64,000 nt of DNA, taken from positions 5,094,925 through 5,158,924 of the forward strand of contig JASGHG010000001.1 in NCBI GenBank assembly GCA_047602425.1, in the 5' to 3' direction. Position 1 is the stretch's first letter, and every line of letters begins with the position of its first letter. A model generated the notes under the pieces. It did not search any database. It was not told the origin of the DNA and saw only the letters and a list, made by a program, of their open reading frames with translations. Positions 36,587 to 53,074 of this stretch are shown here, piece by piece. Both the position numbers and the translations under genes were made by a program. Source of the stretch: Nibricoccus sp. Lineage in GTDB: Bacteria > Verrucomicrobiota > Verrucomicrobiia > Opitutales > Opitutaceae.

Positions 36587-36780
36587 GATTTTGCCGAACG
36601 TTTTAGATCTGCCGCGACTACGGCTGGCGCGGCTCCTGCGCAGCAGGAGACGTGACGGACGTAGGCGTTGGCAGTATGCTACTAATAGGCGGATGAGGTA
36701 ACATAAGGGGCGGCCCCGGCACGGACTAGACGGTGACAAGCACGTAACCGGCACTCCTTAGCCGGAGCCGCAATCTAACC

Positions 36781-42180: not shown

Positions 42181-42573
42181 TTACCTAAAGGGGAGCGCCT
42201 GGTTAGGCGTATTTTCAAAATGCCCTAAATATACCGTCAACGGTCCGCTGCCAGACGTGATGACGATTGTTTGGTGCTCGTCTTCCAATACTTCGCGCGT
42301 GCCATCAGATTCAACTTTCAAGCCAACTTCTGTCTTCTCGCAGCCGGAGATAATAAACACGAATTTCCCTTCCGAACTTTGCTTGAGAAAGTCGCGCACC
42401 ACTTCTTGGTCTCGGCAACACTGTCTGATTTCTTTCTCTGTCAGTGGGCCGACAAACGGCCTACCATTTGCAACTTCTTTGGCTACCCGCACACGAGCAG
42501 CTTCCGCTCTTTCTTTCTGACTCAATCCGCACGCCGACAAGAGCACGCAAAGTAACAAGATAAGCCGGATCAT
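42181..42573 (-). CDS. Cassette 14, lipoprotein; stop now supplied by the IS-A end
   Basis: MIRLILLLCVLLSAC lipobox. Confidence 0.75.
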   Translation of the reverse strand: MIRLILLLCVLLSACGLSQKERAEAARVRVAKEVANGRPFVGPLTEKEIRQCCRDQEVVRDFLKQSSEGKFVFIISGCEKTEVGLKVESDGTREVLEDEHQTIVITSGSGPLTVYLGHFENTPNQALPFR

Positions 42574-42738
42574 ATTTGGCCTAGACACTATAGCTGCGTG
42601 CGCGACGCAGGCGTTAAAATAGACGAAGGTGCTTGTCCCCTGGAACGCGGGTTACTCCGGGTTGCCCTGGAGCCTATCCGCAAGGAGGAAGGAGTCGTGT
42701 TAGCAACCACCAAAACCACCTGGAAAGGAGACAAGCAC

Positions 42739-43851
42739 ATGAAAACGACAGATAAATATATTGGGTTAGATGTCCACAAAGATACGATCACGGTAGCCAT
42801 CGCCGAAGGCGTCCGTCTGGGCGAAGTTCGCCAGTACGGGAAGATCTCGAACGACCTGCATTCGTTGGAAAAACTCCTGCCCCGCCTCGGCGGCGAAAAA
42901 GTCCGGCTGCACTTTGTTTACGAAGCCGGTCCGACCGGCTTTGTGATCCACCGCTGGCTCTTGAAGCGCAACATCGATTCCATCGTGGTCGCACCTTCGA
43001 AGACCCCCACCGAAAAAGGCGGGCGTCAAAAGACCGACCGGCGCGATGCCGAACAACTCGCCAGGTTGCACCGAGCCGGCGAGCTCAAGGCCATCCACGT
43101 GCCCGACGAACTCGACGAAGCCATCCGCGATCTCACCCGGGCTCGCTCCGACGCGGTCGACGATCTGCGCCGGGCCAAGCAACGCCTCAAATCCTTCCTC
43201 CTGCGCCACGGTTACAAGTACCAGGGGAAGGCCGACTGGTCCGACGCTCACCGACGTTACCTCAGGGAACTGGTTTTGCCCATCGCTTCGCAAAAAGCCG
43301 TGCTCGAGGAATGCCTCATGGCCATCACCGATGCGACCCACCGCCTCCAGCGCTTCGACGACCTGATCGCCGCCCAGGTGCCCCAGTGGCGCATGTACCC
43401 GGCGGTCCAGGCGCTCATGTGCCTGCGCGGCTTCCAACTGACCGCTGCCACGATCCTCGTCGCCGAACTTGGCGATGTAAGAAGGTTCGAGCACCCCCGC
43501 CACCTCATGGGCTACCTCGGCCTCGTGCCCAAAGAGCAAACCACCGGCGAGAGTCGCCATCTGGGCTCCATCACCAAGGCCGGCAACTGCCACGCCCGTT
43601 GGATCCTGATCGAAGCGGTGCAATCGAGCTTCCTGCCGCCCAAAGTCTCCTCGCCGTTGTCCACCCGCCAGCAAGGACAACCCAAGCTCTACCGCGACCT
43701 CGCCTGGAAAACCCAGGTCCGCTTGTATAAACGGGGACGACATCTGCTCAGTCGCGGCCTGATGAAGCAAAAGATCATCGTCGCCCTCGCACGTGAACTT
43801 TCCGGCTTCGTCTGGGATCTGCTCCGACAGGTGCCGGAGCCCAAAAACTGA
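42739..43851 (+). CDS. IS110 DEDD recombinase/transposase (second type)
   Basis: IGLDVHKD, YEAGPTG, KTDRRDA, YLGLVPKEQTTG, ITKAGN; AAGGAG SD. Confidence 0.95.
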   Translation: MKTTDKYIGLDVHKDTITVAIAEGVRLGEVRQYGKISNDLHSLEKLLPRLGGEKVRLHFVYEAGPTGFVIHRWLLKRNIDSIVVAPSKTPTEKGGRQKTDRRDAEQLARLHRAGELKAIHVPDELDEAIRDLTRARSDAVDDLRRAKQRLKSFLLRHGYKYQGKADWSDAHRRYLRELVLPIASQKAVLEECLMAITDATHRLQRFDDLIAAQVPQWRMYPAVQALMCLRGFQLTAATILVAELGDVRRFEHPRHLMGYLGLVPKEQTTGESRHLGSITKAGNCHARWILIEAVQSSFLPPKVSSPLSTRQQGQPKLYRDLAWKTQVRLYKRGRHLLSRGLMKQKIIVALARELSGFVWDLLRQVPEPKN

Positions 43852-43935
43852 ACAAGACCGATTGCTTAGCACTATGATTTAGTTCTTTGTCAGAGCCGTC
43901 CAACAGGGCGGCAGTTGTCAGGGACCGGGCACCGA

Positions 43936-44054
43936 GCCCATGCACGTTAACGTTACGAGCAACGACGACCCCGCGTCACCGTCACGCTCGAGCCTAGAGT
44001 CTGCGGGCAAGACGCACCATTGTCTGGTCGGTACCCGATCCACGAATATCAGCT
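43936..44054 (+). ncRNA. Predicted bridge RNA of IS-B (3'-truncated)
   Basis: Target loop GTTAACGTTA / GCCTAG around a cgagc:gctcg stem; donor loop CATTGTCTG / ATATCAG. Confidence 0.65.
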
Positions 44055-44337
44055 CGACCAACCGACCCTCGCGCTCCCAAAGATGAATGCCGATCTTCTG
44101 TCCATCACGAGTCAAACCGATGTGATCGGCGATTTGATACTTCGGCTCTTTCTTCTTTTGCGGCTCGGGCTCAAACATGACCGTCGGGCATTTGCCGCAA
44201 CCGCAGCGGGCTAAAACATGAAGCGCATCGACTTCACTCGAGCGCGAGGAATCAACGTCCGCAAGAAGTCGTACGACTATCGCCCGCTCTTCTTTCGTGA
44301 GCTCTCTGTCGGCGGGAATGCTATACGGGAAACTCAT
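44050..44337 (-). pseudogene. Cassette 13, 3'-truncated ORF (CGCGKCPT motif) fused to IS-B sequence
   Basis: ATG follows an R' box; after GRLVEL the frame runs into IS-B non-coding DNA to 43918; attC missing. Confidence 0.65.
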
Positions 44338-44527
44338 CTTATTTTGCCCAACGATCTCTGGTCAGCCACGCCGAGCTGGCGACTCGAAATTTGAAACGGA
44401 CCCCGTCGAGGCGTTGCGCTGTATGCTACTAATAGGCGGATGAGGTAACATAAGGGGCGGCCCCGGCACGGACTAGACGGTGACAAGCACGTAACCGGCA
44501 CTCCTTAGCCGGAGCCGCAATCTAACC

Positions 44528-45793
44528 ATGATAACGAACAAAGCACTTAATGGCAGAACGCACTCCGGGCAACCGGAAACTCGCTGGGATATCGCCGTCG
44601 ACGTTGGGCAAAAAGCACTGGACTGGTACGGTGAACTCGGGGCCCAGGCGCACCAAGGCCATATCGCCAATCGCAATGAGGCCATCCTCTCATGGCTGGA
44701 ACAACTCAACACCCACGCCCGCCAGCACGGCCTTGGCGGCGTGCGCATCCTCTGCGAACCCACCGGCGGATACGAACGGCGCCTGCTGCGCGCGGCCCGC
44801 CAACTCGGCTGCGCCACCGCCTTGGTCAACGGCGAAGCCGTCCACCAGATGCAAGTGGTCGAGAACAACGATACCGGCAAAAGCGACATCAAAGATCCCC
44901 GCACGATTTTACTATTGGCCAAATGGAACAAAACCCTGACCGATCGTCCCCTCCAAGGCGAGTGGCTGCTCCTGCGCGAACTCAACGCCCGCTACGACCG
45001 GCTCGAACGCGACTCCACCCGCTGTAAAAACAGGATTCATAAACTGCTCCTCTCGCTCTTCCCCGAATTGAGCTTTAAAAACGACTGGCTCTTCGAAGGC
45101 CGCGCCGCCCAAGCCACGATCGCACTCTACGGCCTGAACGCCGCCGCGATCCTCGCCGACGGCCTGGAACGCTGCACCGCCAAACTGCGCAACCACCACG
45201 TTGGCCCAAAGACCATCCAGCGACTCTTCGCCGACGCCCAGCGCTGCGCCCTGATCGACTCCGACCCCGACTGGCTGGCCCTGCTCGCCGAGGACCTGCG
45301 CGCCCTCTTTGCCGAACTCACCGTGCTGCGCACCCGCCGAACCAACACCCGCCAGCAAATGATCGCCCTGGTCGAACGCCTGCGCGCCCGCGGCGCCACC
45401 CGCCTGCAAGCCCATCCCGACCTGATCAGCCCCTTCATGCTCGCCCGTGTCCTCGCCGAGACCGGACCGCTCCGGGACTTTGCCCACGTGCGCCAACTCT
45501 GGCGCTACGGCGGGCTCAACCTGCGGCCCCGCCAAAGCGGCACCATGCAAGGCCAACTCCGCCAAGCCAAACGCGGCCGCGCCCGCCTGCGCCACGTCCT
45601 CGCCCAAGCCGTCCTCAAACGCGTCGTGCACGGACAACTCTACGGGCAATACTACCACGCCAAACGCGACACCGGCATGTGCGGCGGCAAAGCCATGACC
45701 GCGGTCGCCCGCAAGTTCCTCAAACTGCTCCACGGCCTTGAACGCTCGCCCCAACCCTTCGACCCGAAGCGCGTTTTCCGCTCCGCCGCCTAA
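44528..45793 (+). CDS. IS110 DEDD recombinase/transposase
   Basis: Protein matches copy 1. Confidence 0.95.
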   Translation: MITNKALNGRTHSGQPETRWDIAVDVGQKALDWYGELGAQAHQGHIANRNEAILSWLEQLNTHARQHGLGGVRILCEPTGGYERRLLRAARQLGCATALVNGEAVHQMQVVENNDTGKSDIKDPRTILLLAKWNKTLTDRPLQGEWLLLRELNARYDRLERDSTRCKNRIHKLLLSLFPELSFKNDWLFEGRAAQATIALYGLNAAAILADGLERCTAKLRNHHVGPKTIQRLFADAQRCALIDSDPDWLALLAEDLRALFAELTVLRTRRTNTRQQMIALVERLRARGATRLQAHPDLISPFMLARVLAETGPLRDFAHVRQLWRYGGLNLRPRQSGTMQGQLRQAKRGRARLRHVLAQAVLKRVVHGQLYGQYYHAKRDTGMCGGKAMTAVARKFLKLLHGLERSPQPFDPKRVFRSAA

Positions 45794-45837
45794 ACCACTT
45801 CCTTGATCTATTTTAGCCGACATTAACTTTTGCTTTT

Positions 45838-46011
45838 CCGGGAAACCCGCCGCTTGAGGGCCACCAGCCGTTCCGCACAGCCTCGCTGATGCTCAACTGT
45901 ATGTTTTAAAGCCCCGACGGCGGGCCTCCCGGTCTTACCGCCCTTTAAGTATCGTCCGGGCCAGCCCTCAAAAGCTGGACCAACTCATGGGGATCGTCGC
46001 GGAGGACCGGG
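45838..46011 (+). ncRNA. Predicted bridge RNA of IS-A copy 3
   Basis: Guides ACCAGCCGTT 45863-72 and GGGGAT 45989-94. Confidence 0.75.
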
Positions 46012-46201
46012 CTCCTGGTTAAAGCGCCAAAACCATATCCATCTCATGTAACCAAAACCACCTGCTACATCCTGCCCCCCGGGGCTCGTCCTCCGACGAG
46101 CTGGAGGCCCATTCTCGGACTCGCCCCTCTCCCCCCTGACGGCAAAATCAAACTTACCCCTTGATTTTACCTAAAGGGGAGCGCCTGGTTGGGCTCCGTT
46201 T

Positions 46202-46495: not shown

Positions 46496-46502
46496 TTATT
46501 TT

Positions 46503-46596
46503 GCCCAACGTTACAGGTCAGCCACGCCGTACTGGCGGGCAGGGATTAAAAGGACGGACGTAGTCATAGGCGTTGCGCTGTAGCGACTGGTTAGCC
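46503..46596 (-). other. attC11 (duplicate of attC7)
   Basis: GGCTAAC...GTTGGGC. Confidence 0.9.
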
Positions 46597-46600
46597 CTCT

Positions 46601-46912
46601 TCAATACGCGCCTCCTTTTGGCACGCGACCTTCGCTATCGGGAAACTTTCCTGAGGCAATCGTCTTCGCTTTATGTGGGAACGGATAAACGTCGATTGCG
46701 TCACCAGGCCGCACTTCCTTCTTCAAGTACTCTTCGAACATCTCGAAATCGTAAAATGCGAGCGGCGTCGGCGCGCGGCCACCATAGTAATGCCAATGCT
46801 CAACCGCGATATTGCCAACATCGTCAAGGTGCTTCCGCACGGCCTCCAAATTTCCGTGGCTGAGAATATTCTCTCCGTCCGTGCTCCAGACTGGTTGAGT
46901 ACCGTGCGTCAT
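46601..46912 (-). CDS. Cassette 11, hypothetical protein (duplicate of cassette 7)
   Basis: MTHGTQPVW...PKGGAY. Confidence 0.8.
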   Translation of the reverse strand: MTHGTQPVWSTDGENILSHGNLEAVRKHLDDVGNIAVEHWHYYGGRAPTPLAFYDFEMFEEYLKKEVRPGDAIDVYPFPHKAKTIASGKFPDSEGRVPKGGAY

Positions 46913-46920
46913 CTTATTTT

Positions 46921-47019
46921 GGCTAACGTTATAGGTGAGCCACGCCTGTGCTCGGCGCGACGGCTGCTCCGCAGCTGGCGTGACGAGCATAGGCGTTGTG
47001 CTCTAGCGCCTGGTTAGCC
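46921..47019 (-). other. attC10 (duplicate of attC6)
   Basis: GGCTAAC...GTTAGCC. Confidence 0.9.
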
Positions 47020-47349
47020 TCCGTTTTCATCTGTCGAAAGCTCACTAACGGGAATGCATCGCGATGAATACACGATTCGATATCGGGCTCCGATTTCCTC
47101 GGCCAACGCCAAACAAAGCCGCCGGCCTTCAGTATCGAATCTTTCTTCCTCTTCGGCGGACCAACTCGTAGCAGCTGGATCACTGACGTTGAGATGTGAA
47201 TCGTACGTAGCCGACCAATTTTCGAGCGCCTGAGCTAAGCGATCAGAAACCCCAAGCTCGCGTGGCTCAATATTTCCAGGCGGCCCCTCATGACGCCAAA
47301 TCGGCCAGCAACCATAATCGGCCATGAGCTTGAGCGCAGGTTTCGGCAT
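47014..47349 (-). CDS. Cassette 10, hypothetical protein (duplicate of cassette 6)
   Basis: LMADYGCWPIW; stop inside the R'' box. Confidence 0.8.
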   Translation of the reverse strand: MPKPALKLMADYGCWPIWRHEGPPGNIEPRELGVSDRLAQALENWSATYDSHLNVSDPAATSWSAEEEERFDTEGRRLCLALAEEIGARYRIVYSSRCIPVSELSTDENGG

Positions 47350-47359
47350 ATTTCTCTTC

Positions 47360-47458
47360 GGCTAACGTTAACGGTGAGCCATGACTATGGCCGGCATGAC
47401 TCGTGCCTCGCACGAGGCATGACGGACATAGGCATTGCGCTCTAGCAGCTGGTTCGGC
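47360..47458 (-). other. attC9 (duplicate of attC2)
   Basis: GCCGAAC...GTTAGCC. Confidence 0.9.
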
Positions 47459-47462
47459 GTCT

Positions 47463-47837
47463 TCATGACCATATCTTCCACCATGGTTTCTTCGGTGCGC
47501 CAAAAATATGGCATGTCGCGATGCGCGCTTCGGGCGGCAAATCAGCGCTAGCGAAGGGCAAAATGTCCATGAAAGTGCCAGTAGGCAGAAGGAGCTTCAT
47601 CTTACTAATGAGATCCTGCATTACTTCCGGAATTTCTTCTCTACCGCCTACGCCCACGACAAGCACTTGGCGCGCTTCGGCATCACCCTCGATATAAGTC
47701 TGCGGAACGTAAGCTTCAAAAATACCGGGGACCTGCGCGACGACCTGTCCAAGGGCGTCCATCTGTACCTCAGGCATCGGCTTCGATGGCGCACCAAAAA
47801 ACATCTTAGCTCCGACGGGAAGTGTTCGCTCACTCAT
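47463..47837 (-). CDS. Cassette 9, SseB C-terminal-like protein (duplicate of cassette 2)
   Basis: FGAPSKP...PGIFEAY...VLVVG...MDILP; KKPWWKIW tail. Confidence 0.7.
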   Translation of the reverse strand: MSERTLPVGAKMFFGAPSKPMPEVQMDALGQVVAQVPGIFEAYVPQTYIEGDAEARQVLVVGVGGREEIPEVMQDLISKMKLLLPTGTFMDILPFASADLPPEARIATCHIFGAPKKPWWKIWS

Positions 47838-47842
47838 ATTTT

Positions 47843-48384: not shown

Positions 48385-48389
48385 TTTTT

Positions 48390-48483
48390 GGCGAACGTTA
48401 CAGGTCAGCCACGCCGTACTGGCGGGCAGGGATTAAAAGGACGGACGTAGTCATAGGCGTTGCGCTGTAGCGACTGGTTAGCC
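48390..48483 (-). other. attC7
   Basis: GGCTAAC...GTTCGCC. Confidence 0.9.
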
Positions 48484-48487
48484 CTCT

Positions 48488-48799
48488 TCAATACGCGCCT
48501 CCTTTTGGCACGCGACCTTCGCTATCGGGAAACTTTCCTGAGGCAATCGTCTTCGCTTTATGTGGGAACGGATAAACGTCGATTGCGTCACCAGGCCGCA
48601 CTTCCTTCTTCAAGTACTCTTCGAACATCTCGAAATCGTAAAATGCGAGCGGCGTCGGCGCGCGGTCACCATAGTAATGCCAATGCTCAACCGCGATATT
48701 GCCAACATCGTCAAGGTGCTTCCGCACGGCCTCCAAATTTCCGTGGCTGAGAATATTCTCTCCGTCCGTGCTCCAGACTGGTTGAGTACCGTGCGTCAT
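48488..48799 (-). CDS. Cassette 7, hypothetical protein
   Basis: One amino-acid difference (D/G) from cassette 11. Confidence 0.8.
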   Translation of the reverse strand: MTHGTQPVWSTDGENILSHGNLEAVRKHLDDVGNIAVEHWHYYGDRAPTPLAFYDFEMFEEYLKKEVRPGDAIDVYPFPHKAKTIASGKFPDSEGRVPKGGAY

Positions 48800-48807
48800 C
48801 TTATTTT

Positions 48808-48906
48808 GGCTAACGTTATAGGTGAGCCACGCCTGTGCTCGGCGCGACGGCTGCTCCGCAGCTGGCGTGACGAGCATAGGCGTTGTGCTCTAGCGCCTGG
48901 TTAGCC
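48808..48906 (-). other. attC6
   Basis: GGCTAAC...GTTAGCC. Confidence 0.9.
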
Positions 48907-49236
48907 TCCGTTTTCATCTGTCGAAAGCTCACTAACGGGAATGCATCGCGATGAATACACGATTCGATATCGGGCTCCGATTTCCTCGGCCAACGCCAAA
49001 CAAAGCCGCCGGCCTTCAGTATCGAATCTTTCTTCCTCTTCGGCGGACCAACTCGTAGCAGCTGGATCACTGACGTTGAGATGTGAATCGTACGTAGCCG
49101 ACCAATTTTCGAGCGCCTGAGCTAAGCGATCAGAAACCCCAAGCTCGCGTGGCTCAATATTTCCAGGCGGCCCCTCATGACGCCAAATCGGCCAGCAACC
49201 ATAATCGGCCATGAGCTTGAGCGCAGGTTTCGGCAT
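48901..49236 (-). CDS. Cassette 6, hypothetical protein
   Basis: Same protein as cassette 10. Confidence 0.8.
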   Translation of the reverse strand: MPKPALKLMADYGCWPIWRHEGPPGNIEPRELGVSDRLAQALENWSATYDSHLNVSDPAATSWSAEEEERFDTEGRRLCLALAEEIGARYRIVYSSRCIPVSELSTDENGG

Positions 49237-49246
49237 ATTTCTCTTC

Positions 49247-50227: not shown

Positions 50228-50529
50228 TCTGTATCCATTGGCTCTCGCAATTACGAAGACACTAGCTACATAAATGACCGAGCCGATCATTGCTGAAAGC
50301 ACTGCCCTACGCCCTTGCTTTGCCTTGTCCAGCGTCGCATACAACCCAGCATGCGAAGCCAAATATGCTGGCGCGGCACCATCAACGGATACACTACTGG
50401 ACCAGTATCCCAAGATCCACCGCCTTGACTCCTCGAGCCAGCGAGTGCGCTGAGAACAAACCATGCGCTCACCAAGCTAAGAAGCGCGCCGGTCAAAAAC
50501 GATGTGGTCCAGATAGCGAGAGCTTTCAT
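50222..50529 (-). pseudogene. Cassette 3, membrane protein, probable frameshift near 50375
   Basis: ORF 50287..50529 has the start and ORF 50222..50464 ends in the R'' box; joining gives one ~100-aa hydrophobic protein. Confidence 0.55.
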
Positions 50530-50531
50530 TT

Positions 50532-50630
50532 GGCTAACGTTAACGGTGAGCCATGACTATGGCCGGCATGACTCGTGCCTCGCACGAGGCATGACGGACA
50601 TAGGCATTGCGCTCTAGCAGCTGGTTCGGC
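50532..50630 (-). other. attC2
   Basis: GCCGAAC...GTTAGCC. Confidence 0.9.
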
Positions 50631-50634
50631 GTCT

Positions 50635-51009
50635 TCATGACCATATCTTCCACCATGGTTTCTTCGGTGCGCCAAAAATATGGCATGTCGCGATGCGCGC
50701 TTCGGGCGGCAAATCAGCGCTAGCGAAGGGCAAAATGTCCATGAAAGTGCCAGTAGGCAGAAGGAGCTTCATCTTACTAATGAGATCCTGCATTACTTCC
50801 GGAATTTCTTCTCTACCGCCTACGCCCACGACAAGCACTTGGCGCGCTTCGGCATCACCCTCGATATAAGTCTGCGGAACGTAAGCTTCAAAAATACCGG
50901 GGACCTGCGCGACGACCTGTCCAAGGGCGTCCATCTGTACCTCAGGCATCGGCTTCGATGGCGCACCAAAAAACATCTTAGCTCCGACGGGAAGTGTTCG
51001 CTCACTCAT
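50635..51009 (-). CDS. Cassette 2, SseB C-terminal-like protein
   Basis: Same protein as cassette 9. Confidence 0.7.
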   Translation of the reverse strand: MSERTLPVGAKMFFGAPSKPMPEVQMDALGQVVAQVPGIFEAYVPQTYIEGDAEARQVLVVGVGGREEIPEVMQDLISKMKLLLPTGTFMDILPFASADLPPEARIATCHIFGAPKKPWWKIWS

Positions 51010-51014
51010 ATTTT

Positions 51015-51679: not shown

Positions 51680-53074
51680 ATGAGCACGGAGGAAATCATT
51701 TTAAAACCCAAGGACGCGGTGCGGCGGTTGTTGACGGCGGCTGGCGTGAATGTTCCCGACAAGGAGGCTTATTGGCTGGGCTTCCATATGGAACGATTTG
51801 TGAATCATACGCGCAGGCATGGCGAGCTTTTAGACCTCCCGACCGCTTCGGAAAATTATTTGATTCACTTTCGAGGCAATGTCCCGGTTCCAGAAGCCTG
51901 GCAGATTACCCAAGTGAAACAGGCGTTGGAATTGTTTGCGAGGGGCACCGAGGGTTGGCGCTGGGTGGAAGCGAAAGAATCAGAATATGCCACTAATAAT
52001 GTGGCTGGTCCAAGTGGCTGGGTTTTGCGCTACCGCATTAAGGCCAGTGGTTCGAGCCGGGTGATCGCCGCGGGCGTGAGCGCGGTTTCTCCCGATGGAG
52101 CACCAGCGCAGTTGGCGGACTGGATGGACAGGCTGCAGCGGGCAGTTCGGGTGAGTCATTATTCGATCAGGACGGAGAGATCTTATTTGGAGCTGGTACG
52201 CCGGTTTTTGTTATATACGGGACCGGTTTCAGAGAAGGCCCTGGGAGACGTGCAGGTGAAACGATTTTTGGAGCATTTGGCTTTGGAGCGGTTGGTAGCG
52301 GCGAGCACCCAGAATCAGGCGTTTTCGGCAATTTTGTTTTTCTTCAAACGGGTGCTTGGGCGGGACCTGGGCGACATGAGCGGCACTTTGCGCGCCAAAC
52401 GCGGGCGGCAACTGCCGGTGGTTTTAGCGAAGGAAGAGGTCGGGCGTCTGCTGGCGATGTCCGAGGGCACCACCGGTCTGATGTTGCGGCTCATTTATGG
52501 CACGGGGTTGCGCTTGATGGAGTGCATCCGTCTGCGGGTTAAGGAAATCGATTTCAAGCGACGCATGCTGCTGGTCCGTGCCGGCAAGGGCAACAAGGAC
52601 CGCATGGTGATGTTGCCCGAGGCTTTGGCGGAAATTTTGCAGCAGCATTTTGAACGGTTGCGGATTTTATGGGAGCAGGACAGGGCCGCTAATGTCGCAG
52701 GTGTGTGGCTACCCGGCGCTCTGGAATCGAAGTATCCCAACGCAGGAAAAGAGTTTGGCTGGCAATGGGTTTTTCCGGCCCGAGATTTGTCGGTGGATCC
52801 TCGTTCGGGCCTTATTCGCCGGCACCACGTGCACGACAATACCCTGCACAAAGCGGTGAAAATCGCAGCGCAGCGGGCGGGGATAGTGGCAGCGGTCAGC
52901 GTGCATACGCTAAGGCATTCGTTTGCGACGCATCTGCTGGAAGCAGGTACGGACATTCGTACGGTACAGGAGTTGCTCGGACACTCTCACGTGGAAACGA
53001 CACAGATCTATACGCATGTGATGCAGAAGCCGGGGCTGGGAGTGAAGAGCCCGCTGGATGCGTTGGTTGGTTAA
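51680..53074 (+). CDS. intI: Integron integrase with N-terminal extension
   Basis: YGTGLR, GKGNKDR, IntI-specific KYPNAGKEFGWQWVFPA...RRHH, HTLRHSFATH, LGH, TQIYTHV. Confidence 0.97.
   Translation: MSTEEIILKPKDAVRRLLTAAGVNVPDKEAYWLGFHMERFVNHTRRHGELLDLPTASENYLIHFRGNVPVPEAWQITQVKQALELFARGTEGWRWVEAKESEYATNNVAGPSGWVLRYRIKASGSSRVIAAGVSAVSPDGAPAQLADWMDRLQRAVRVSHYSIRTERSYLELVRRFLLYTGPVSEKALGDVQVKRFLEHLALERLVAASTQNQAFSAILFFFKRVLGRDLGDMSGTLRAKRGRQLPVVLAKEEVGRLLAMSEGTTGLMLRLIYGTGLRLMECIRLRVKEIDFKRRMLLVRAGKGNKDRMVMLPEALAEILQQHFERLRILWEQDRAANVAGVWLPGALESKYPNAGKEFGWQWVFPARDLSVDPRSGLIRRHHVHDNTLHKAVKIAAQRAGIVAAVSVHTLRHSFATHLLEAGTDIRTVQELLGHSHVETTQIYTHVMQKPGLGVKSPLDALVG

Follow-up and report, generated by a model that had tools for sequence, protein, structure and literature searches.

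The described elements that come closest to the one reported here form the IS1111-attC group (ISKpn4, ISPst6, ISPa21, ISPa25, ISUnCu1), whose members enter the attC sites of integron cassettes at a fixed base and antisense to the cassettes, and encode a DEDD transposase (PMC11187229, PMC13604230, PMC3001079). Their inverted repeats are sub-terminal, and they have a 3' guide RNA in which the strand-complementary guide comes first (PMC11187229). Insertion near the 5' end of attC has been described (PMC3001079), and the target of ISKpn4 is L'' (PMC13604230 Table 1), as with ISUnCu1, an element named on a plasmid (PMC10232235). IS621 and ISCro4 use a two-loop RNA with target and donor guides that overlap at the core (PMC11208160, PMC13626964), and a bridge RNA was also predicted for ISCARN28 (PMC11208160). 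Group IIC-attC introns are likewise specialised on attC, where they use the bottom strand antisense to the cassettes, but they are retroelements of unrelated chemistry that enter at R'', the end opposite to the one studied here (PMC3001079, PMC7923331). Both the mechanism and attC-targeting RNA-guided elements are thus already published. The part that seems new is insertion in the R' box, for which no report concerning an IS110/IS1111 element was found in the mainly open-access literature searched.

The window, the whole stretch of 64 kb that was analyzed, forms the last 64 kb of a complete 5.16-Mb genome and contains a chromosomal integron. The integron integrase gene (51680-53074, plus strand) scored 419 bits against a cut-off of 265 in a profile search with TIGR02249; about 145 residues precede the first family match. 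The cassette array extends on the minus strand from about 51580 to 36010, with 14 intact attC in the window. Because the array lies on the minus strand, the plus strand shows each attC as its bottom strand, in the order R' (RYYYAAC), spacer, L', L'', R''. Some cassettes are duplicated near-identically (46499-47250 and 48386-49240; 47357-47840 and 50529-51010), a sign of recent rearrangement. On the chromosome (G000:C1) the attC model gave 47 matches in at least six clusters (including about 287-302 kb, 919-928 kb, 1.49 Mb, 4.13 Mb and 4.82 Mb) whereas the threshold used gave only two integron-integrase genes; an integrase thus seems to be lacking from several arrays.

Two kinds of insertion sequence, here called IS-A and IS-B, lie in the array. 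IS-B, at 42584-44053, is a 3'-truncated element of the IS110 superfamily. Its features and its surroundings are listed below.

42181-42573, minus strand: ORF P0003 of the downstream cassette, without a Pfam family; its ATG is 10 nt from the insertion point
42578-42583, plus strand: what remains of the attC R' box on the left (GGCCTA, bottom strand); its final A is common to target and element, and relatives have the same junction
42584-42600, plus strand: left end of IS-B, GACAC and the 12-bp sub-terminal inverted repeat TATAGCTGCGTG, with a matching right-hand repeat in intact relatives
42739-43851, plus strand: IS-B transposase/recombinase, 370 aa in an intact frame, with Pfam DEDD_Tnp_IS110 and Transposase_20
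43849-43878, plus strand: possible sigma-70 promoter TGAACA-18-TATGAT, a consensus match only (one found, shuffle mean 0.2), directly before the conserved RNA start
43882-44053, plus strand: what is left of the predicted bridge/seek RNA, its 5' half; the deletion took the outer stem's 3' arm and the part that closes the donor arm
43948-43955, plus strand: TAACGTTA, the right target guide; its complement comprises the shared A, the preceding base and the first 6 nt of attC past the cut
43991-43997, plus strand: left target guide AGCCTAG, the same sequence as the left flank GCCTA
44018-44025, plus strand: CATTGTCT, a weakly supported candidate for the right donor guide; of 21 rows, 12 show complementarity to left-end base 5, the window copy not among them
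44045-44052, plus strand: left donor guide AATATCAG, a copy of the right end TATATCA and the first left-end base
44050-44053, no strand: deletion junction; CAGC can be read as IS or cassette, and microhomology may have been involved
44054-44337, minus strand: 5' part of the upstream cassette ORF P0002, which is cut off after about 96 codons; its 3' end and attC are lost
44424-46180, plus strand: neighbouring IS-A copy (context), in the L'' arm of the next attC
51680-53074, plus strand: integron integrase (context), TIGR02249

The IS-B transposase combines a DEDD RuvC-like domain (D11, E62, D100, D103) with a Transposase_20 domain, in which Thr269 stands where IS621 and ISCro4 have the catalytic Ser, i.e. 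a TG form of the SG motif; this places IS-B in the IS110 superfamily. In agreement, the protein scored 241 bits with NF033542 (cut-off 140). Its named relatives come from Verrucomicrobiota and Opitutae, to which the host probably belongs too. IS1111-type ends are described as having inverted repeats of 11-13 bp, placed 7 nt from the left end and 3 nt from the right (PMC11187229); the left repeat of IS-B accords with this 7+3 spacing once the shared A is assigned to the left and ATAG is taken as the start of the repeat. No outward promoter was found at the left end of IS-B, and no family reached its gathering score in an Rfam scan of the window.

An earlier note on this DNA, made from the sequence alone, had named a set of motifs in IS-B, and they were recovered where it had placed them: the left junction GGCCTA|GACAC with its A at 42583, GTTAACGTTA at 43946-43955, a cgagc:gctcg stem (43956-43960 and 43986-43990), GCCTAG at 43992-43997, CATTGTCTG at 44018-44026 and ATATCAG at 44046-44052. 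The claimed identity of GTTAACGTTA to the minus strand of two attC was also seen: the sequence occurs three times in the window, in IS-B and on the minus strand of two intact attC (47363 and 50535), with a mean of 0.04 in shuffled sequence and none of 100 shuffles reaching three.

The right end of IS-B is absent. Nucleotide similarity to the closest relative, L042 (87% amino acid identity), extends from 42580 to exactly 44053, and 166 nt of the 3' end of L042 have no counterpart. Since truncation has removed the right end, ATATCAG is an internal, guide-like copy of that end, which fits the role that had been proposed for it. Beyond 44053 the cassette ORF P0002 is shortened as well, with about 96 codons left versus 120 and 123 aa in two homologues. 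One deletion, by our estimate of about 300-350 nt, would have taken the right end of IS-B together with the attC and the tail of the upstream gene. Without the donor end and half of the RNA outer stem IS-B is probably immobile, and the window copy appears to be dead. IS-B is single-copy, and a search of the whole same genome found no intact copy; as its right junction is lost, the insertion site is known from the left side only.

Relatives of IS-B were collected from genomes, metagenomes, viral contigs and plasmids. At 44% identity or above there were 130, of which 81 had a callable end pair and 49 were excluded, many because the contig stops. The close set consisted of 27 relatives with at least 60% protein identity and both ends, including five copies of one genome and two copies from one contig with the same right flank. 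The elements compared had no flank in common, apart from L140/L141 of one contig. This 15-kb metagenome contig has 4.2 kb in common between the two copies (the element and 3 kb of right flank) and different left sides, by duplication or as an assembly artefact.

The 27 close relatives have a left end G(A/G/C)CA(C/T) followed by the 12-bp repeat, and a right end made of the inverted repeat and TCA. Their sub-terminal repeats match at 8-12 of 12 positions in intact relatives, as in IS1111-type ends; the window copy has the left repeat only. The right junction reads ...CAGCTA(T/G)ATCA|ACG in 24 of the 27, the others being one TCG, one contig end and one different target. Of these relatives, 25 had a flank long enough for comparison with an attC covariance model (R1), which was built from 11 attC of the window and whose computed structure is without R-box pairs. 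In 23 of them the first base of the flank fell on position 6 of the model; the two exceptions are L083, which the model missed, and the retargeted L056. G008 has five identical copies, each in a different attC R' box, and in G083 nine of nine right ends are followed by ACG. The earlier note had predicted a right end ...ATATCA followed by ACGTT and the rest of attC, and would have taken intact copies outside R' boxes or with another end as evidence against its reading. The place of the junction was as predicted in these relatives, with L056 outside attC. The predicted letters hold for L042, which ends TATATCA, but most of the clade ends TAGATCA. Judged by these junctions, the element, antisense to the cassettes, enters R' at bottom-strand RYYYA|AC, and a single base separates the cut from the IntI crossover.

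A protein-independent scan of 401 genomes of the family with a right-end 13-mer gave 84 matches, of which 51 were followed by ACG and 3 by TCG (hand count); a reversed control pattern matched about 55 times (hand sum), which is sufficient to account for the remaining 30. The motif was present in 59 of the 401 genomes, in some by chance. TCG instead of ACG follows the right end in L042 (G003), G117:C52 and G129:C6, which turns the AAC triplet to ATC; these are junction errors or variant targets, and the left end of L042 is altered too. In L050/L193 (G334) the last 67 nt of the element stand as a tandem duplicate before attC. The right ends of L199 and L203 abut attC at places other than the R' cut; L203 was dropped as a case of retargeting to L'', being a right-end fragment without the right target guide. 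Three right ends in G381 (L204-L206) lie in repeated non-attC sequence.

Among the deeper relatives (44-60% identity) the ACG flank was found in 19 of 54. With an attC heuristic, 10 of 19 ACG-flank sites versus 0 of 29 other sites passed at p<0.05, but this heuristic is noisy (true attC controls 8.2-16.5, null 95th percentile 9.75). With only 10 of the 19 passing, we are less certain that members of the deep branches target R'.

An attC that has taken up the element shows, on its bottom strand, element...(G/T)ATCA followed by AC, spacer, L', L'' and R''. The terminal base of the element is A, so that neither the AAC triplet nor the attC hairpin is broken up; the triplet was counted as rebuilt in 27 of 27 junctions, with spacer, L', L'' and R'' still joined. 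As the insertions keep an almost complete attC, site-finding models would score the attC as intact and miss the insertion. On the top strand, 26 junctions have a hybrid box GTTGATC or GTTGATA, and GTTGATC fits GTTRRRY at six of seven positions. The expectation in the earlier note that insertion in R' would block IntI is thus doubtful and, as stated, not supported by the junctions, though pairing of the R boxes falls: R' and R'' pair at a mean of 5.8 of 7 positions before insertion (21 sites) and 4.0 of 7 after it (25 sites), and 7 of the 25 post-insertion sites have three R-box pairs versus 5-7 in the 14 intact window sites. With this drop, a partial loss of attC activity is possible.

How such insertions affect integron function is a matter with little experimental evidence (PMC11616780). 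Conserved attC sequence has been described as limited to AAC and GTT (PMC2727003), and crossover as taking place between A and C, with the triplet, the stem and the extrahelical bases as essential parts and the R box among the important regions (PMC7439510). Accordingly, the same element at the same site might still inactivate the attC, if GATC or TATC in place of RYYY weakened the R box enough to stop IntI and freeze both neighbouring cassettes. The loss of R-box pairs, the rank given to the R box and right-end relics at apparent array ends in G083 are all consistent with inactivation, whereas the rebuilt triplet, the restriction of conserved sequence to AAC and GTT, the retention of every part called essential and the six-of-seven fit of the hybrid box argue against it. 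We give inactivation a serious but somewhat less than even chance. Reduced rather than abolished IntI recombination, at a weaker and still working hybrid site, is what we expect by a slight balance of these observations.

Sequence proof of IntI using the hybrid site was not found in the junction comparison, the G083 relics or the G154 cassette. Two of the G083 relics have about 300 nt in common at 90% before different attC bodies, and the non-IS part of this stretch also occurs at three other places; G154 has a cassette with an IS-derived R', of which G154 contains no second copy. Further short relics (L209, L211, L191, L216, L221 and L222) consist of a right end that lacks a transposase and is still attached to an entire attC body; in the case of L216, a cassette within an array has about 28 nt of IS sequence as its R' end.

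The 3' non-coding regions of 22 intact relatives and the window copy were aligned from a conserved GTTCTTT. They fit a fold in which a long outer stem encloses two arms: first the target arm, which has an internal loop, then another one. In this fold 94.4% of cells were paired and 21 of 45 pairs had two-sided changes, and 0 of 500 shuffles were as high (slid controls about 40%), although the structure was derived from the same alignment in which the pairs were counted and the relatives are not independent, so that the permutation values overstate. The conserved two-arm structure, together with covariation of the right target guide and of the left donor guide, corresponds to a bridge/seek RNA. 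The long 3' non-coding region and the position of the strand-complementary target match 5' of the other match are those of IS1111-type elements, and IS1111 seekRNAs are described with this same order of target matches (PMC11187229).

The right target guides, which form the 5' side of the target loop, matched their own sites at 104 of 126 bases versus 86.7 after shuffling (0 of 50,000 shuffles as high), and still at 99 of 120 versus 88.2 (p=0.0002) without L056; matches per element were imperfect, at 4-6 of 6. The base preceding the shared A was matched by the guide in 14 of 19 (p=0.003). The left target guide, on the 3' side of that loop, equalled the left flank at 78 of 95 positions (19 elements), with weak covariation at its variable base (p=0.055). 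In 21 of 22, the left donor guide, which lies in the second arm, had the same T/G variant as the right end, so that the departure of the clade from the predicted end letters is accompanied by a matching change in the guide. For the other donor guide, the earlier note had pointed to CATTGTCTG. This proposal holds in so far as the candidate tracks left-end base 5, but complementarity was seen in 12 of 21 and not in the other nine, and L042 alone shares the TGTCT stretch. Of 51 elements in the 44-60% group, 44 contained their own target 5-mer versus 12 after shuffling. Within the clade, L056 (G119) has both guides changed, and its non-attC site fits the new right guide at five of six bases. L082 is another clade member with changed guides.

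In principle, targeting could be due to a protein that reads the folded attC hairpin, with the RNA matches being secondary. The guide matches are short and imperfect and yet nearly all close relatives lie in attC, and looser target patterns are common genome-wide (GCCNAACGTY has 153 matches in the genome of the window), as hairpin reading would allow. But the guide bases change with the target, up to the full switch in L056 to a site outside attC, the cut lies at the foot of the hairpin, and the stricter guide word is found mostly within arrays: 9 of 12 genome matches of G[GC]CTAACGTT coincide with attC-model matches. With so few occurrences of the guide word away from arrays, sequence by itself can account for the preference for attC, and we regard hairpin reading as improbable. 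In G008, KCCTAACGTY has 18 matches (control 65), most of them clustered and many beside IS copies. All 27 close relatives have a -35-like TTG at a distance of 22 nt from the right end, and this TTG could pair with CATTAT or CACTAT at 18-nt spacing across a circle junction.

The relation of IS-B to the IS1111-attC group was studied with ISUnCu1, which we take to be a member; this placement agrees with the shared L'' site and with by-eye inspection of the ISKpn4 sequence. In the sequence of its plasmid, the cut of ISUnCu1 lies in L'', six bases ahead of the R'' GTT, and R' is whole. Its transposase and that of IS-B have 27% identity over 128 aa and fall on separate branches of a quick tree (SH-aLRT 99 and 95). 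In the transposase phylogeny that had been proposed as a check, one clade of IS-B and IS1111-attC was rejected (AU p=0.00035, with ISUnCu1 as one representative, a quick tree and long outgroup branches). Notwithstanding the same class of host site, the antisense orientation, the sub-terminal repeats, the 3' RNA and the guide order, it is therefore most unlikely that IS-B is an ordinary IS1111-attC member with a shifted site, a placement that we rejected with this one tested representative on the tree and on the different cut site, since ISUnCu1 and ISKpn4 (PMC13604230 Table 1) cut L'' and leave R' whole.

The clade of IS-B thus lies in attC antisense to the cassettes like the IS1111-attC group, but in the R' box beside the crossover, where hairpin and AAC stay whole, whereas the group cuts L'' next to R'' and splits a stem arm. 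Nor does IS-B fall in the IS1111 family in the strict sense (330-350 aa, related over full length): its transposase of 370 aa is on another branch, apart from ISUnCu1 and IS5708, the two elements used for this comparison (IS1111 itself was outside the set). Among elements with names taken from plasmid annotations, the nearest are ISSfr2 (48.5%), ISSso6 (46%) and ISEc45 (42%), i.e. 42-49% identity over the whole protein on the same major tree branch; the ISCARN28 protein also resembles this branch by eye. An ISSfr2-like and an ISSso6-like element, the two examined, have the same end pattern and 3' non-coding region as IS-B, but their flanks are not attC. L071, L161, L162, L103 and kin (ISSfr2-like) repeatedly have the same GTGG... 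sequence at the right flank, which suggests that these members target or carry a conserved piece of another mobile element. In the quick tree, R' targeting was found in a 17-row subclade including IS-B (16 R'-type rows, SH-aLRT 100) and in several scattered lineages, so R' targeting would either be old in the ISSfr2/ISSso6 branch or have arisen more than once.

With IS621 and ISCro4 (PDB 8wt6, 9t56) the clade has the catalytic motif positions in common, as well as the two-loop RNA with overlapping guides. It differs from them in that the RNA is 3' of the gene, the guide order is reversed, the sub-terminal repeats are long and the nucleophile position holds Thr or Ser. In addition, only the A is common to both junctions; the preceding base is that of the target at the left junction and that of the donor at the right one (n=27 close relatives).

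IS-A (421 aa) is present at 36677, 40438 and 44424 of the window and at six other places in the genome. It scored 110 with NCBIfam IS110, against a cut-off of 140, and cuts the L'' arm at one base in all nine copies, about one base from the position used by ISUnCu1. No significant protein match was found between IS-A and IS-B (best E=0.02) or between IS-A and ISUnCu1. The earlier view that IS-A and IS-B are unrelated and use opposite ends of attC is borne out by these data, with IS-A in L'' and the IS-B clade in R'. As the lineages of IS-A, ISUnCu1 and IS-B are unrelated, three lineages use attC, two of them at L'' and one at R'.

Altogether, we consider it highly probable that IS-B is a member, probably dead, of an RNA-guided lineage of the IS110 superfamily which has IS1111-type ends and is specialised on the attC R' box. 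The ends, the site, the orientation and the covariation within the RNA fold and between guide and target can be read from the aligned elements of the lineage; from IS621 and ISKpn4 we infer that transcription, an RNP, a circle and strand exchange would be added to these. In intact members, the 3' non-coding region would give a two-loop bridge/seek RNA. Its target loop would present two short guides, the strand-complementary one first, which together span about 11-12 nt across R' and the spacer, and its donor loop would present the element's two ends, copied in joined form. The DEDD recombinase would excise or copy the element as a circle, and the circle would insert antisense to the cassettes at bottom-strand RYYYA|AC. 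The inserted element would become a 5' part of the downstream cassette and leave the hairpin of the upstream cassette whole. A later deletion in the window copy would have removed about 166 nt at its right end, along with the attC and the last part of the upstream gene.

In its prediction that the attC site should survive, the IS-B lineage differs from the known group. Going further, the branch may have evolved to enter integrons without disabling them, by rebuilding a working R' (GTTGATC), so that IntI moves the element as cassette cargo, and R' targeting may be ancestral to the ISSfr2/ISSso6 branch and later have been redirected by guide change; we offer this as a tentative and rather unlikely extension. 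If true, the integron integrase could excise members of the IS-B lineage, reorder them and spread them with the cassettes. Insertion sequences that target attC were previously known as one IS1111 group that splits the L'' arm, to which this array adds two further, unrelated lineages of the IS110 superfamily. By the count of genomes with its right-end motif given above, the lineage of IS-B is common in the bacterial family of the host, and it uses the opposite end of attC. RNA-guided recombinases have thus converged repeatedly on one host site, and the IS-B lineage offers natural guide/target pairs that change together.
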